Positions 28,717 through 46,714 of a stretch of 64,000 nucleotides of DNA are shown in pieces. Every line of letters begins with the position of its first letter. The stretch's first letter is position 1. This stretch comes from Alphaproteobacteria bacterium. GTDB lineage: Bacteria; Pseudomonadota; Alphaproteobacteria; CAAHEQ01; UBA3637. The DNA lies in the NCBI GenBank assembly GCA_045605805.1, contig JAZUQR010000027.1, forward strand, positions 160,001-224,000, given 5' to 3'. A program made the translations under genes and the position numbers. A model generated the notes under the pieces. It was not told where the DNA came from. It did not search any database and was given only the letters and a program-made list of their open reading frames with translations.

Positions 28717-28812
28717 ATTTTGTTCCTCCTGTTAAAAATTGCATCTGTAGATAAATTATACCATAAAACAAAATTTTTGTCAATTTTAGCCCTTTTTGAA
28801 AAGTAAATAAAA

Positions 28813-28847
28813 GAAAAACAACCTATGTATTTCAATAGGTTATTTTG
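28813..28847 (-). terminator. Hairpin/terminator immediately beyond the outermost CCGCCA core (probable original tRNA terminator)
   Basis: AAAACAACCTAT...ATAGGTTATTTT with a T tract on the - strand, 4-5 nt from the core at 28852. Confidence 0.55.
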
Positions 28848-28851
28848 AAAG

Positions 28852-28884
28852 TGGCGGGCAATGCTGTGCATAATGGGAACTCAT
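28852..28884 (-). repeat. Cassette end site R, copy 1, including the CCGCCA core
   Basis: TGGCGGGCAATGCTGTGCATAATGGGAA identical to 29713-29740; 32 of 33 bases match over the extended repeat. Confidence 0.95.
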
Positions 28885-29482
28885 TTAATTGTCTGATTTT
28901 TCGTATTCTCAATATTTTTATTTACTTTATAGATATAGTATGTATCATATTTGGAACCTAAGGAAAACTCCTTTTTTGGTTCCATATCTGGAATTGGAAA
29001 CCGATTGACATAAAGAAGGGTACTTTTTTTTGCTTCTGTTTGACATTTAGTGCTGATTTTTTTCATTAAGTGGGATAATAAAAATAAAAATATAATATCA
29101 GCTTTGGATATATCTGCGTTAAAGAAATTTTGACGATAAAACTCGATATTTTTCATTTTTCTGGCTCTAAATCTACTAACTAAATAGGGAACCACCCATA
29201 TTCAATTCCAATAAACTTGTGCTGTGGAAATTGTTGCGCCAAGGGTAAAAGTAAGGTACCCCAACCGCTTCCCAAATCCATTATGGTTTGATTTTTTCTT
29301 TTCTCTAAAAGTTGAGCAACATTTTTTAACATAGCCCTTTTAACTTTTCCACTTGATGGAACAGGTGGTGCATTGCGCATAAAACTGGAATTAAAAGCAA
29401 AATAGATGGTTATTATTCCCACACAGAATATAACTAACATTAATAAAGTTTGCAATAACACCAACAAATAAATAAGAACCAT
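28881..29482 (-). pseudogene. Frameshifted class I SAM-dependent methyltransferase with N-terminal TM (FAM173-like)
   Basis: ORFs 29180-29482 (TM, PPVPS, MDLGSGWG, FIGIE) and 28881-29195 (NFF, ADIIFLF) join into one fold if one base is restored near 29192. Confidence 0.8.
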
Positions 29483-29523: not shown

Positions 29524-29718
29524 AAAATGTTCGAATGTCGGTAAGGGTTCCAAACAGCGTTAAAAATGTGAAATGTAATAAATTCAAGCGCTTACTGCGT
29601 TATCGGTTCGATTGTTGAAAAAGTATGTGCTTTTTGACCAAACAACATTTGAACCAGCTTAACATATTGAAAACAAAAGAAAAAGTCGCTATTTTAAGCG
29701 ACTTGTTCACTTTGGCGG
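29524..29718 (-). repeat. Cassette arm L, copy 2 (~195 bp)
   Basis: Colinear with 31763-31958, about 80% identity by manual alignment. Confidence 0.95.
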
Positions 29719-29745
29719 GCAATGCTGTGCATAATGGGAAGTCAT
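29713..29745 (-). repeat. Cassette end site R, copy 2, including the CCGCCA core
   Basis: 28-bp exact match to 28852-28879. Confidence 0.95.
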
Positions 29746-29777: not shown

Positions 29778-31691
29778 TCAACCTCCTGCCTGTGGGGTAT
29801 TTTGTCCTTTTAAAATAGAAAGAGGAGGTTGTTTTTTATTTGAAAGCGATCTTTTATCAGCACTTTTGGAAAGCATTTGTATTAAACCGGATTTACCTGT
29901 ATTATTCCCAGACTTCTTATGCGACTTAACGGAAGAAGTTAAAGGACTGTTTTCTGGAAATCTATCAATATTCTCCTGACTGATAATCGGCTTCCCATAT
30001 TTGTCCTTTAATGACATAAGGATAGGTAATTGTTCAGCATAATCTGAATGTGCCTGAATAAGACTTTCTAACAATATATTCTTTCCTTCTTTTGTATCAA
30101 AAGTCTTACGGGAAAGTGGTAGATTTCCTTTTTCATCTTTAATTGCATCAAATAATAATTTAATTTCTTCCTTGCAATTTTTTCCTCTACTTATGTCTCG
30201 CACCCAAATATCCAATGCTTTAGCAAATTGTTCCTCTCTAACAAGTACCTTTCCATCACGACCTGTTAATTTTAGTATTTGAGGAAGTAATGGAAGCATT
30301 TTAATCCAGTCCTCATCGTAAGGACCGAAATGTCCCAAAAACACATTCCTCGTGTTATCAAAAGAGGCTCGTAAATCTTTTTCTATAAGGGGTAGACGTC
30401 CTTCATCATCTGAAAGAATAGCAACAGACTTTTTAAAATCTTCTGGAATCTTTGTTTTAAAAGACAATATATTCGCAATATTTTCTGAAGTCGCTATTTT
30501 TTCACCATCACGAGTAGCCTCAACTAGGTACTTTAATGCAGCGGGACTAATAATTTGCTGAATACCACAACCTTTAAAAAGATCTCTAACTTTTTCTATA
30601 TTAAATACATATTGAGAATCAGTTCTTTTCAATGTCAATATATCGTGAATCTGTGCTGGTGAAGCATTTTCCAATATGTATCCTAAAACCTCTTCATAAT
30701 CCTTGGGCATTTTTTCATCAACACCATCATGTAAAAGACGTATATATTCATCCAGATGGTTATTCTTTTTGGCTTGCAATAACTTTCCTCGAAAACGTCT
30801 AGCTCTTCTAGGGGCTTCTTGTAATTTTTTCATCAAACTTTGTGGTAAGTGAAATACCTCTGGAATACAATCTAAACCTGGATCATTTTCCCCAATTGGA
30901 GCTCTCATATCATATAAATCTTTATAAGGACTACCATATACTCTATCTAATATGGCACTTATCGCCTCTTCTTCAATTTTTTTATCACCTCTATGGCTCA
31001 CATCATTTGCGTGTTTTTTTAATATTTCTTCATACGTTTTAACCCCAGTCATTTTAGTATCATCTGTATGACCAAAAATTTCATAATAAGCTCGCGCACC
31101 GGTTTCAAATGCTTGTGCTTCTGATAAAAATTCAAGCTGATGCCAAGCATAGGCATTTTCTATTGGAATTCCAAAAAACGAAGCATTCATCATACGTTCT
31201 TCCTGATGATAGGCAGCCTCATCATTTTGTTCTGCGTGTTTGAGTTCATGTGATAATACTAAAACTAAAAAATTAAGATCATCCACCTTTTCAAAAACAA
31301 CCTTATTGTCCATCGGTCCATATGAAGCCGCAGATTTTGCCTCCTTATCTCCGTTATTTCTTTCTCTGACTATTGTAGTGTCAATTATGAGAGGGTTCGT
31401 ATCTTGACGAAAGGTTGAAAATTTATGATACAAAGGTGTTTCCTTACCATTCAGTTCATAAATCAATTTTAAAGCCTGTTGAACCTTTTGTTCTCTTTCG
31501 CTTAAATTTAATTTTGGATTATTCGGGTAATCTTCTGGATATATAAACTCACGAATAGAGCATGTTTTTATTTTGCTTTTTAACTCTTTTGCTCTTTCTT
31601 CATCTATAAAACTATGTTCAAGAAGATATTGCTCCTCTTCTGTCAATAAAACCCCATATGACACTTTTATCATATCCATTGAATTTTCCAT
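29778..31691 (-). CDS. Hypothetical 637-aa protein with HExxH zinc-metallopeptidase-like domain and C-terminal degenerate repeats
   Basis: VLSHELKHAEQ followed by EAQA; recurring [L/I]xDxxGxxx[I/L] units; AAGGAG RBS. Confidence 0.7.
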   Translation of the reverse strand: MENSMDMIKVSYGVLLTEEEQYLLEHSFIDEERAKELKSKIKTCSIREFIYPEDYPNNPKLNLSEREQKVQQALKLIYELNGKETPLYHKFSTFRQDTNPLIIDTTIVRERNNGDKEAKSAASYGPMDNKVVFEKVDDLNFLVLVLSHELKHAEQNDEAAYHQEERMMNASFFGIPIENAYAWHQLEFLSEAQAFETGARAYYEIFGHTDDTKMTGVKTYEEILKKHANDVSHRGDKKIEEEAISAILDRVYGSPYKDLYDMRAPIGENDPGLDCIPEVFHLPQSLMKKLQEAPRRARRFRGKLLQAKKNNHLDEYIRLLHDGVDEKMPKDYEEVLGYILENASPAQIHDILTLKRTDSQYVFNIEKVRDLFKGCGIQQIISPAALKYLVEATRDGEKIATSENIANILSFKTKIPEDFKKSVAILSDDEGRLPLIEKDLRASFDNTRNVFLGHFGPYDEDWIKMLPLLPQILKLTGRDGKVLVREEQFAKALDIWVRDISRGKNCKEEIKLLFDAIKDEKGNLPLSRKTFDTKEGKNILLESLIQAHSDYAEQLPILMSLKDKYGKPIISQENIDRFPENSPLTSSVKSHKKSGNNTGKSGLIQMLSKSADKRSLSNKKQPPLSILKGQNTPQAGG

Positions 31692-31762: not shown

Positions 31763-31958
31763 AAAATGTTCGAGTGTCAGTAAGGGTTTCAAACAGTGTC
31801 AAAAATGCGAAATGCTTTAAAATCAATCGCTTACTGAGTTATCGGTTCGATTGTTGAACAAAGTATGCCTATTTTTCCTGCTTAACAATCGAACCGCCTT
31901 AAACCATTGAAAATAAAAGAAAAAGTCGTCATTTCTGACGACTTGTTCACTTTGGCGG
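31763..31958 (-). repeat. Cassette arm L, copy 1 (~196 bp), abutting the tRNA 3' end
   Basis: Contains a terminator hairpin, a 13-bp perfect inverted repeat CGGTTCGATTGTT/AACAATCGAACCG and IHF consensus AATCAA-TCGC-TTA. Confidence 0.95.
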
Positions 31959-32041
31959 AGCGTACAGGATTTGAACCTGTGCATCCCTTTAACAGGATGA
32001 CGGATTAGCAATCCGCTGCATTACCACTCTGCCAACGCTCC
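31953..32041 (-). tRNA. tRNA-Ser(GCT)
   Basis: GGAGCGT/ACGCTCC acceptor stem, anticodon loop TTGCTAA, long variable arm, TTCAAAT T loop, G discriminator, encoded CCA; TTGACA/TATTAT promoter upstream. Confidence 0.97.
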
Positions 32042-34724: not shown

Positions 34725-35939
34725 TTAGACAGAACGCCCTTTGGATTTTACCTTATTATCCAACACAACAATTTTGTTGTCTTTGGTCACATGATAGGTG
34801 GGCAAACGGCAACAATCCGGCACAGGGATTTCAATAAAGACATTTTTGCCCATAAAAGAGAGTAAATTAAACTTTTCTTGAATGGGATCCAGATATTCTT
34901 CATGTAAAGCCGTATGTTGCTTATAGGGTAAAAAGACAATGTTATTGATATCATTATTACCCCCAAAAGCAAGAGGAATCACATGATGGGCGGTTAAATC
35001 TTGTTGGGTGTCAGTTGTATCAGAATGAAAAAATAAATTAAAATCACCCCGCAAACCACAAGCCTGCAAAAACTGCAAACGGTTCTGGTTAAAATCATAT
35101 CGGCGTATTTTTTTTTCGGCCCCCGATACAAAATCAGCCTTTACAATTTGCATACTCATATTTTCTGGAACAACCGGTTTTTTATGCAAACTCAATAAAA
35201 TCCCTTTTTTGAATTGTTGGCTGATAACCTTATTGCCCAATTTTGAACGCCAATTTGCTTTATTTTGAAAAACTTTTTCATAAGCAGCTCTATCAGTAGC
35301 CGGTACAAAATCCAAAAAAGCCTCGTTTGTAAAAACACAAGGAAGGGACGGCATATAAAAACCCAGTTTATGTGTAAAATCTTTTTCTTGTAAAAACTTG
35401 TCCTTACAATTTTTAATCACAGACCAATAAGTTTCATCCATAATTTCGGCCACATCAGACGAAACCACATACATATTAGAAGTATCCAAAGTACCACCTA
35501 ATTCCAAAGGAATGCGAAAATCAACCATATAATTTTTGGGTAAATGACCTGTTTTTAACGCAATAGCCTTGTCTTTTTCCGAAAAAATACCATCAAAACA
35601 ATGTCGTGTGGCCAAGCGTCGCACAAAAAGATTAGCCTGTTTTTTGAATTGTTGAATATGAAACTTTTTAACAGAAGTTTCTTTTTCCCCAACAACTGTT
35701 TCCGTTAAATAAACAGTCTGGGGATTTTCCTTAAAATACTTATTATCTTGGCAAACAAAATGAAGCATCAGATTCTTAAACTTATCAGTTGTCTTGCGAA
35801 TTTGGGTATCTTTCACCCAAGTGGACATTTTTTTTTGAATTTCAGATTTTGCCTTATTCTTGGAAAAAACAACTAATTCCATAACATTTTCATTGTTTTT
35901 TTTATGCCGAAAATCGCCTTTTTTTTTATAATTTTTCAT
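34725..35939 (-). CDS. HNH endonuclease-domain protein with a degenerate N-terminal HNH copy
   Basis: C-terminal AHHVIPLAFGGNNDINNIVFL...H...H; N-terminal paralogous VDFRIPLELGGTLDTSNMYVV. Confidence 0.75.
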   Translation of the reverse strand: MKNYKKKGDFRHKKNNENVMELVVFSKNKAKSEIQKKMSTWVKDTQIRKTTDKFKNLMLHFVCQDNKYFKENPQTVYLTETVVGEKETSVKKFHIQQFKKQANLFVRRLATRHCFDGIFSEKDKAIALKTGHLPKNYMVDFRIPLELGGTLDTSNMYVVSSDVAEIMDETYWSVIKNCKDKFLQEKDFTHKLGFYMPSLPCVFTNEAFLDFVPATDRAAYEKVFQNKANWRSKLGNKVISQQFKKGILLSLHKKPVVPENMSMQIVKADFVSGAEKKIRRYDFNQNRLQFLQACGLRGDFNLFFHSDTTDTQQDLTAHHVIPLAFGGNNDINNIVFLPYKQHTALHEEYLDPIQEKFNLLSFMGKNVFIEIPVPDCCRLPTYHVTKDNKIVVLDNKVKSKGRSV

Positions 35940-45280: not shown

Positions 45281-45966
45281 TGAGAGAAATAGTATTAGAT
45301 ACAGAAACAACAGGTCTTGATCCTGAAACTGGGGACCGTATCGTTGAAATAGGGTGCGTTGAGCTTGTAAACCATATTCCAACGGGCAAAACCTATCATC
45401 AATACATCAATCCGGAACGCTCTATGAGCGAGGAAGTAATAGCCGTACACGGTTTAACAGAACAATTTTTGTCTGACAAGCCAAAGTTTGAAGAAATTGC
45501 CGACGATTTTTTGGCATTTGTTGGGGAAGATACATTAGTCATTCATAATGCTCCCTTTGATATGAAGTTTTTGAATTATGAATTAAACAAAGTAAATAGA
45601 CCTTTGCTAAAATACGAACATGTGCTGGACACATTGGTGATGGCACGCAAAAAATACCCTGGTTCTCGTGTCAATTTGAATGAATTATGTAAAAGATTCA
45701 ATGTAGATGCCTCCCGTAGAACAGTCCATGGAGCATTGCTGGATAGTGAATTATTGGCCGATGTTTATTTGGCAATGATTCTGGATAAAGAATTGAAATT
45801 TTCACAACCCATTGAAAAAAAAGAAAAAAAAGATATCCACACAAATGTTTCACGTGAAACATTATCCCCAAGAAGTTTTGAATTATTAACTGAGGAACTG
45901 GAAGCTCATAAAGAGTTTTTGAAAAAAATTAAAAATCCTTTGTGGGAAAAATTATCCACAGAATAA
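45280..45966 (+). CDS. dnaQ: DNA polymerase III epsilon subunit
   Basis: MREIVLDTETTG, HNAPFD, HGALLD exonuclease motifs. Confidence 0.96.
   Translation: MREIVLDTETTGLDPETGDRIVEIGCVELVNHIPTGKTYHQYINPERSMSEEVIAVHGLTEQFLSDKPKFEEIADDFLAFVGEDTLVIHNAPFDMKFLNYELNKVNRPLLKYEHVLDTLVMARKKYPGSRVNLNELCKRFNVDASRRTVHGALLDSELLADVYLAMILDKELKFSQPIEKKEKKDIHTNVSRETLSPRSFELLTEELEAHKEFLKKIKNPLWEKLSTE
45846..45861. promoter_or_regulatory. parS site inside dnaQ
   Basis: Perfect TGTTTCACGTGAAACA. Confidence 0.92.
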
Positions 45967-46001
45967 AAAAAATAGAAAAATAATTTTATCCACATAAAAA
46001 A

Positions 46002-46017
46002 TGTTTCACGTGAAACA
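46002..46017. promoter_or_regulatory. parS site between dnaQ and rsmG
   Basis: Perfect TGTTTCACGTGAAACA. Confidence 0.93.
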
Positions 46018-46105
46018 TTTTTTATTTTTTTATCATGAAAAAACTTGAAAATATATTTTTTTTTAATATAATGTAGAAAAATATACATAAAAAAAGGAAA
46101 TATAA

Positions 46106-46714
46106 ATGAAAACAAGGGCTGAATTGGAAAAAGAAATAACTCCTTGTGTTCCTCTGTTGAAAATGTATTGGGAACTTTTGTTAAAATGGCAAAAATCGGT
46201 CAATTTAATTTCGCCCAATACAATAAAAGACGGATGGGAACGGCATATTTTAGATTCTGCACAACTTTATTTTTTAATTGAAAATCAACAGCATATCTTG
46301 ATGGATGTGGGCAGTGGCGGGGGTTTACCGGCCATTGTTTTGGCTATAATGAATAAAACATTAAATGGACCTTTGACAGAAATTATTTTGGTGGAATCTG
46401 ATTTGAAAAAAAGTTTATTTTTGGCAGAATGTGCAAGACAGTTAAACTTAAAAATAAAAATTATGCGGGAACGGGTTGAAAAATTATCTTTAACGCCAGA
46501 TGTGATAACAGCCCGTGCTTTTGCGCCCTTAAATGAATTATTAAAACTTATCCACACAAATGTTTCACGTGAAACAATTTTACTTTTACCAAAAGGAAAA
46601 AATGTGTCAGAAGAAATAACAAACAATACATATAAGTGTGAGATTGAAAAAATAAAAAATATAATCAATTCAGATGGATGTGTTTTGAAAATAAGGGGGA
46701 TAGAATATGACTAA
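46106..46714 (+). CDS. rsmG: 16S rRNA m7G527 methyltransferase
   Basis: WQxxxNLI, RHILDSAQL, DVGSGGGLP, TARAFA; precedes parAB. Confidence 0.95.
   Translation: MKTRAELEKEITPCVPLLKMYWELLLKWQKSVNLISPNTIKDGWERHILDSAQLYFLIENQQHILMDVGSGGGLPAIVLAIMNKTLNGPLTEIILVESDLKKSLFLAECARQLNLKIKIMRERVEKLSLTPDVITARAFAPLNELLKLIHTNVSRETILLLPKGKNVSEEITNNTYKCEIEKIKNIINSDGCVLKIRGIEYD
46561..46576. promoter_or_regulatory. parS site inside rsmG
   Basis: Perfect TGTTTCACGTGAAACA. Confidence 0.92.

Follow-up and report, generated by a model that had tools for sequence, protein, structure and literature searches.

Judged by its description rather than by a DsiB sequence, the closest known system to the locus reported here is that of the Dehalococcoides ssrA islands and DsiB (McMurdie et al. 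2011, PMC3146451). According to the sections of that paper cited here, these islands lie in tandem at a t(m)RNA 3′ end, 15 of 31 have no integration module, a small serine recombinase stands beside the large serine recombinase (LSR), and the 3′ end of the LSR gene overlaps attL. The family described below shares these traits, the last of them in its type I members only. In contrast to the single target ssrA, the 20-bp repeat and the cut in the T-loop given for DsiB in the same sections, it uses at least 10 tRNA species with a 6-bp core at the CCA, mostly as single-gene cassettes of ~1.3 kb with a non-coding arm, a putative accessory pair and IHF-like sites, features that those sections do not describe.

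Accretion at the 3′ end of a conserved gene is also described for SCC/SCCmec elements (CcrAB, CcrC) and CIMEs, whose derivatives keep their att sites and lose the recombinase (cited parts of PMC3146451 and PMC5704250). The accretion of recombinase-less cassettes follows this known logic of DsiB and SCC; the target here, in contrast to SCC, is the tRNA T-arm. Three type I LSRs, P0001 (the enzyme discussed below) not among them, reach at most 88 bits against the NCBIfam CcrA/B/C models, which have cut-offs of 700-900. Integron cassette arrays are likewise rows of mostly single-gene, recombinase-less units with the newest first; they depend on tyrosine chemistry, a Pc promoter at the head and a resident integrase, whereas the arrays described here point to serine chemistry, double-stranded sites, a tRNA platform and a terminator at the head, and have no resident integrase. 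Tycheposons, in the cited part of their report (10.1101/2020.12.28.424599), also form islands by stacking at several tRNAs, the most recent arrival lying closest to the tRNA, but 910 of 937 have tyrosine recombinases, their att sites are about 40 nt long and they carry their own integrase. Among IMEs, those with a serine recombinase insert for the most part into dispensable genes, which they disrupt, and it is the tyrosine-type elements that use tRNA 3′ ends (cited part of PMC5704250).

The phage integrases A118/LI, Bxb1 and phiC31 share with the enzyme considered here the Resolvase, Recombinase and zinc-ribbon domains, and the motif of phage serine integrases, like the one found here, occupies positions 16-24 of the element and 11-19 of the target (Rutherford et al. 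2013, PMC3783163). Their sites are two-sided and about 40-50 bp long, no accessory sites or host bending protein are known to take part, and attL is not known to be an integration substrate, whereas here the motif is one-sided and the junction is proposed to be reused. The main text of an LSR survey (PMC10083194) does not contain the word 'tRNA', and the cited parts of PMC12884075 do not describe such sites. In the openly accessible literature searched, we found no paper on T-loop-reading LSR cassettes and no description of an accessory site within an LSR gene.

Here we analyze a window of 64,000 bases from an alphaproteobacterial genome of 1.2 Mb with a permuted tmRNA (G000). We conclude that the L arm behind its tRNA-Ser(GCT) gene is very probably the element-side arm of non-autonomous cassettes of a tRNA-targeting LSR.

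Two cassettes behind tRNA-Ser(GCT)

The array comprises the following features.

31953..32041, minus strand: tRNA-Ser(GCT), the target gene, with the T-loop GTTC at -24 from the CCA end
31953-31958: shared core CCGCCA, the 3′ end of tRNA-Ser(GCT)
31763..31952, minus strand: L arm of cassette A (attL/P′ arm), 190 bases
29778..31691, minus strand: cargo of cassette A, a 637-aa protein with a weak DUF6782 match (E 0.0006, below the cut-off)
29713..29744, minus strand: R arm of cassette A (P half-site), with the -29 motif decayed to CTTC; includes the core at 29713-29718
29524..29712, minus strand: L arm of cassette B, with a pair span of 49, H1 at 29660-29672 and H2 at 29582-29594
28881..29482, minus strand: cargo of cassette B, a SAM-methyltransferase-like gene in two frames (100 + 104 aa)
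28852..28883, minus strand: R arm of cassette B, with GTTC at -29 (28877-28880); includes the terminal core at 28852-28857
28812..28851, minus strand: displaced native tRNA-Ser flank, which ends the array with a terminator

On the tRNA strand, the tRNA and its CCGCCA are followed by the L arm, the gene for the 637-aa protein, an R arm of ~30 bp and a second CCGCCA; cassette B then repeats the order of L arm, methyltransferase-like gene, R arm and CCGCCA, and a terminator closes the row. Cassette A measures 2240 bp and cassette B 861 bp, and both are without a recombinase. The cargo of cassette B is frameshifted, and its Pfam matches are below the cut-off. The T-loop GTTC at -24 would serve as the attB half-site. 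The flank at 28812-28851 agrees at 30 of 40 bases with the sequence directly after tRNA-Ser in the cassette-free genome G005 (L302), compared with 13-20 matching bases of 40 in five other arm-free genomes. The identity with G005 indicates that the two cassettes displaced the native terminator by 3.1 kb.

Elsewhere in the window, palindromes at 45997-46020, 46558-46581 and 45845-45861, which we take to be parS-like, lie near repeated TATCCACA boxes, and this region is probably a replication origin region. At 34725-35939, flanked by thrS and a response regulator, is a 404-aa ORF with a C-terminal HNH domain. A tRNA cluster and prophage-like contigs of the assembly (G000:C26:21-575, C12, C16, C28) look foreign compared with the rest, possibly through mis-binning.

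Architecture of the L arm

Motif statistics refer to an alignment (A2) of 30 full-length homologous arms, each of at least 100 bits. From the distal end toward the core, the arm of cassette A contains the following features.

31768..31773, plus strand: distal half-site GTTCGA, which marks the arm end
31804..31812, minus strand: conserved TTTCGCATT, which resembles the Ser-type R-arm motif
31821..31833, plus strand: IHF-like site H2, perfect consensus
31845..31894: inverted GTTCGATTG..CAATCGAAC pair, span 50, at +59
31900..31912, minus strand: IHF-like site H1, one mismatch, on the core side of the putative accessory pair
31923..31944, minus strand: intrinsic-terminator hairpin followed by a T-run

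The central GTTC..GAAC pair has a span of 50 in 29/30 arms (49 in copy B) and lies at +59 in 26/30. It belongs to a 13-bp inverted repeat, present at 31843-31855 and 31884-31896 as first described from the sequence; the spacer, which had been called variable, varies in sequence but not in length. Alignment of L homologues, the check proposed at that stage, gave a column identity of 0.95 for the half-sites and 0.68 for the spacer, with the span fixed in 29/30. Across 90 arms the pair was detected in 63, in 57 of them at +59/+60 (shuffles 1.4), in the other 27 no pair could be detected, and many arms are short or truncated. The GTTCGATTG..CAATCGAAC pair may be an accessory site for an LSR dimer.

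In the distal part, the sequence-only reading had paired TGTTCGA (31767-31773) with TCAAACA (31789-31795) across 15 nt. Both halves are present, with an equivalent in copy B, but the exact pair is kept in only 2/30 arms. The outer half, TCGAAC, is exact in 19/30 arms and has at most one mismatch in 24/30, and TGTTTG occurs in 9/30; the two were probably mis-paired, the outer half being real. A better conserved partner for it is TTTCRYATT at 31804-31812, separated by a span of 45-46 in 21/30 arms and of 55-56 in 4/30, where 10 bp, one helical turn, are inserted. The conserved TTTCGCATT at this place is possibly a third half-site. Five of the six GTTCGA hexamers in the 64-kb window fall within the two L arms. 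The GTTC reported beside the core is indeed found at 31945-31948, but GAAC is kept there in only 18/30 arms; its final AC persists in 27/30.

Both IHF-like sites named earlier are as reported: AATCAATCGCTTA at 31821 matches the consensus perfectly, with one mismatch in copy B (29582), and the site in the opposite orientation at 31900-31912 has one mismatch. Chance alone yields 0.05 perfect matches and 0.5 matches at one mismatch per 190 bp of the window, which makes single IHF-like sites weak evidence. Across the alignment, H1 is found at no more than one mismatch in 21/30 arms and H2 in 23/30 (shuffles 0.6 and 1.8). In the coding arms of type I LSR genes, described below, such sites occur in 0-3/37 (shuffles 1-1.8); their enrichment in cassette arms makes them look gained rather than inherited. 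The IHF-like sites are conserved in position, and binding of IHF would be predicted from the consensus match. The IHF-alpha-like and IHF-beta-like genes of G000 match their families below the cut-offs.

The sequence-only reading overlooked the terminator next to the core. Its 9-bp hairpin is 95.9% paired across arms, with compensatory changes at 2/9 pairs, and is the predicted replacement for the displaced terminator of the tRNA. The covariation check proposed earlier separates this hairpin from the rest: in the long stem, pairing reaches just 37% at the 14 inner pairs, which argues against an RNA helix in the arm beyond the terminator hairpin, and the outer ten pairs are conserved as sequence. 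Covarying helices are confined to the terminator hairpin and do not extend throughout the arm.

Geometry of the junctions

In a set of junctions selected by the L arm only, the start of GYYC lies at -24 from the CCA end in 27/27 tRNA junctions and at -29 in 31/53 other junctions, any other offset being found at most 3 times. The -29 motif is missing in 22/53, including cassette A of the window; by our reading, these include two tRNAs cut at the locus edge, other kinds of insertion and decayed copies. Identity to the tRNA of the array holds at -5 and -6 in 20/21 junctions and drops to 14/21 at -7. A core-free scan, with an R model trained on the 31 junctions and spanning only -32 to -11, gave 42/46 at -5, 41/46 at -6 and 23/46 at -7. 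At -4, a mismatch is tolerated in several junctions. The edge at -6 is consistent with a short identity around a 2-bp crossover, and we place the exact dinucleotide provisionally at -6/-5.

Counted from a center at -6/-5, positions 11-19 fall on the T-loop 9-mer and positions 16-24 on the R motif. For serine integrases, the zinc-ribbon motif lies 5 bp nearer the center in attB than in attP (cited part of PMC3783163). The 5-bp shift between -24 and -29, together with the stop of identity at -6, therefore points to the geometry of a large serine recombinase. These motif positions also support the earlier proposal that one recombinase reads GTTC(GA) in both tRNA and arm. The shift is seen for the left half-site only: at +11 to +19 no motif is conserved in 37 LSR arms or in cassette arms, where only AC at +7/+8 recurs, mirroring -17/-18. 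Since no motif stands at the canonical place to the right of the core, the tRNA junction should be reusable, which would explain newest-first stacking. The R-arm motif is often unlike the internal pair (GTTCCCATT versus GTTCGATTG). The crossover site thus delimited is probably short, from about -29 to +8 around the CCA, and most of the L arm would consist of the terminator and accessory sites.

We also considered pairing of the R arm with the first L bases as an attC-like hairpin; by eye across families, the complementarity is inconsistent.

Candidate recombinases

A family search revealed LSR genes that end inside tRNAs. Public genomes yielded 80 related loci, with Alphaproteobacteria, Patescibacteria, Elusimicrobia and others in the record titles; of the 74 that extend to the C-terminus, 55 have their end in a tRNA or tmRNA. 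In the candidate attR sites of these relatives, -29 is the top motif offset (24/576 core repeats; the next offsets have 17 and 14), and identity is exactly 6 bp in 18/21, 17/21 coming from close relatives (L128-L139).

The LSR genes fall into two types. In type I genes the reading frame itself includes, at +82, a GTTC..GAAC pair with a span of 50. Among 37 dereplicated type I arms the outer six pair positions are symmetric in 29-35/37, and positions 11-25 in 0-15, with one exception at 31. The Ser codon in the palindrome is TCG in 43/54, compared with 10.9% elsewhere. Aligned in register with the type I coding segment, the cassette spacer scores -11.5 (shuffles -40 +/- 2; reverse complement -44.5); shifts of +/-1 base score -17.7 and -23.7, also above the shuffles, so that A/T tracts carry part of this signal. 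At the level of sequence, these results show that the central pair of the arm is homologous to the palindrome in LSR coding 3′ ends. The change from 82 to 59 amounts to 23 bp, no whole number of helical turns.

Type II genes have the orientation of the tRNA and lie near the R end of the element. In a quick tree of 32 rows, in which row L124 has an implausibly long branch, they form one branch (SH-aLRT 99) beside the type I Leu/Lys enzymes of the family. The palindrome (at least 7/9) is kept in 34/41 type I genes and in 0/13 type II genes, and the 3′ end of the integrase gene overlaps attL in type I but not in the type II LSR tied to the present arm.

An LSR linked to this arm was found in G062. 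One contig carries a tRNA-Ser(GCT) with an arm 139/193 identical (72%) to that of the window, about 13.8 kb without a further core and, at its end, residues 1-132 of P0001; another contig starts with P0001 residues 196-540, and a Ser-type R arm follows 117 bases later. Joined across the contig gap, as we propose, they make up an apparently autonomous element of about 14 kb with both arms and an LSR. P0001 (540 aa) passes the Pfam cut-offs for the Resolvase, Recombinase and zinc-ribbon domains. Type II elements with left arm, LSR and R arm on a single contig occur at tRNA-Gln (L142) and at tRNA-Glu (L312, LSR split). A search for a longer (fused) form of the Ser-type LSR P0001 found none.

G000 has no intact LSR of the family of this arm and retains C-terminal relics only, one of them 94% identical to the end of P0003. 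Strong LSR matches occur in only 4/20 other genomes of the genus, compared with arms in 19/20. Since the LSR is missing in G000 and rare in the genus, the helper is probably transient or unassembled. The other three LSRs of G000 and their relatives were rejected as the cognate enzyme, having no tRNA and no convincing L arm nearby.

Several further recombinase loci were observed. Between tRNA-Lys(TTT) and tRNA-Leu(CAA), two arrays face each other (G000:C21:126900-141000); in this region a Lys-type R arm is preceded by a type II LSR relic, and a type I relic forms the arm of a Leu cassette; an Mpi-like resolvase and a 1626-aa ORF are also present. Tandem pairs of type II-like LSR genes at L146:2419-5595, L149 and L181 are reminiscent of ccrAB. 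Genes of the Mpi family are located at G000:C13:11816, C30:1555 and C21:88515, 100237 and 135806, and at L310:11521, L103, L144, L145 and L043; in several cases the gene is preceded by inverted sites of its own, spaced about 120 bp from each other. Islands with ~590-aa tyrosine integrases and triple direct-repeat arms lie at tRNA-Thr and tRNA-Glu (G000:C21:75836-101558 and C7:57100 onward) and are a separate system.

Distribution of arms and cassettes

G000 contains five full L arms (187-205 bits) and several partial ones. Among the genomes compared, all of them kin, L arm matches occur in 19/20 other genomes of the genus, 22/24 of the family and, weakly, 1/16 outside it. An arm is present in 11/17 readable tRNA-Ser(GCT) flanks, and 10 or more tRNA species have arms. 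In G000 and 38 fetched regions, we catalogued 44 units at 10 tRNA species, with a median length of 1.28 kb; 33/44 have a single ORF, and none of the 44 contains a recombinase gene, neither tyrosine nor Mpi-like. One cargo gene is 84% identical between Ser and Lys cassettes of one genome.

A pattern scan of metagenomes returned 22 stretches, 13 of which read as L arms and 9 of which are unrelated, with no LSR within up to 4 kb on each side. In a viral collection, both of the 2 pattern matches were unrelated, and there was no locus for the Ser-type LSR. Contigs from four DNA runs represent related strains; one joins an L end to R-like sequence and may be a circle or an ordinary internal junction. 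These contigs contained no clear excised circle and no empty/filled pair within one strain.

Other observations concern the arrays more generally. L arms in L236, L245, L250 and L251 are cut or ended distally by the same IS-like end sequence. In G015 (L048, L049, L050), a family of ~380-aa proteins with a hydrophobic N-terminal stretch is cargo in Ser, Pro and Met arrays, with 25-44% identity among them. Short palindromic repeat elements behind tRNAs (G000:C25:3481-3639, C10:72638 and C21:101560-101700; L023, L030, L034) duplicate part of the T-arm and displace L arms. Rewriting of the discriminator base of tRNA-Arg(TCT) by a cassette was ruled out, as A and G both occur without a cassette.

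Discussion

The reading of the arm as an att arm, made initially from the window alone, is supported by the motif geometry and by LSR-bearing elements with the same arms. Our assignment to an LSR builds on sequence data: the arrays and their boundaries, the geometry, an LSR element with both arms (across one contig gap) and the homology of the central pair. A narrower interpretation, compatible with this assignment and different on the accessory role only, holds that the crossover is an LSR att site and the rest of the arm an inherited relic plus a terminator, with no accessory role today. Descent of the central pair from an LSR coding end would fit this, as would the many arms without a detectable pair or of reduced length, and the accessory role is itself a prediction. 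We nevertheless consider it unlikely, in view of half-sites conserved beyond their spacer at a fixed span, IHF-like sites that look gained while type I coding arms stay at shuffle level, and relocated LSR genes that lost the palindrome. IHF-interleaved arms suggest a tyrosine-type enzyme, and an attP/attL arm of a lambda-like integrase, acted on in trans by ~600-aa integrases or XerCD, would indeed account for IHF-like sites interleaved with repeats at conserved places and for the 6-bp shared core; 21/21 genomes of the genus encode tyrosine recombinases, and many of these have a length of about 600 aa. The evidence points instead to an LSR. The two ~600-aa integrases of G000 lie at tRNAs with different, direct-repeat arms, no tyrosine integrase is linked to the 44 cassettes or to loci L012-L061, and the 5-bp shift, the tolerated mismatch at -4 and the presence of the same arms in LSR-bearing elements all speak against this origin, which we hold to be very improbable.

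We give equally little credence to the arm as a res site for small serine recombinases of the Mpi family, five of which are encoded in G000. Among the small resolvases tested, two score above the cut-off of the Mpi family, several type II elements contain Mpi-like genes, and the Mpi repeats contain GTTCG in the cited part of PMC8375218. These resolvases, however, have their own upstream inverted sites of different sequence, no Mpi-like gene is found in the 44 catalogued cassettes, and the P/B shift needs a zinc-ribbon domain, which Mpi-family enzymes lack. By analogy with DsiA or CcrA, an Mpi-like resolvase may be a helper beside the LSR. A structured ncRNA co-transcribed with the tRNA is scarcely credible for the arm as a whole: although copy A folds well (z -4.8) and the 9-bp hairpin has compensatory changes, the fold of copy B is no better than shuffles (z -1.2), the inner long stem is poorly paired and the outer ten pairs are conserved as sequence, the terminator lies upstream of the remaining arm on the tRNA strand, and there is no Rfam match. 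As far as the alignments indicate, the RNA alternative holds for the terminator hairpin only.

In the LSR mechanism that we favor, an enzyme supplied in trans would recombine a cassette circle, in which R arm, core and L arm form attP, with the 3′ end of a tRNA gene, cutting at the dinucleotide -6/-5 from the CCA end. The zinc-ribbon domain would read the T-loop 9-mer (11-19) in the target and the same motif at 16-24 in the R arm. The cassette would restore tRNA bases -4 to -1 and supply a new terminator; the tRNA junction would stay a target, and cassettes would pile up newest-first. More speculatively, and with the case for and against about balanced, accessory LSR dimers, bound to the 50-bp pair and the distal half-sites, would contribute the missing specificity; IHF, by bending the DNA at H1 and H2, might loop these dimers to the core. 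To our knowledge, canonical LSRs need neither accessory sites nor IHF and do not re-use attL, which counts against our model.

As to its history, type I LSRs would represent the state in which the pair, at +82, is part of the coding 3′ end. In type II, a subclade from gut Alphaproteobacteria, the gene would have moved near the R end and lost the palindrome, and the element would have gained IHF-like sites and a non-coding arm in which the pair stands at +59. The wider picture, to which we give an even chance, is of an LSR family of several phyla with an asymmetric, resolvase- or lambda-like intasome and one-sided T-loop recognition; its accessory dimers, the source of specificity and direction, would first have used a 50-bp palindrome in its own coding sequence, and one lineage would have turned this into a non-coding, IHF-bent arm and integrase-less, integron-like arrays at tRNAs with a matching -6/-5.

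The prevailing view is that serine integrases require just two short sites and work without a host factor. If our model is true, this picture would be widened by an LSR that uses accessory sites and may depend on IHF. The locus supplies P0001 as a candidate enzyme, a prediction of the cut site and the two arms, the long one having a putative accessory pair for which the type II genes are a natural loss control; it also suggests a route to DNA insertion at almost any tRNA gene. If true, an integrase that requires a T-loop and a 2-bp match, restores the tRNA and leaves the site reusable would be a broad-host, stackable insertion tool. We regard a large serine integrase, with the universal tRNA T-loop for a landing signal, as the most likely mover of the cassettes; this would explain how single genes are gained and shuffled at many tRNAs in these 1-Mb gut bacteria without integrons.
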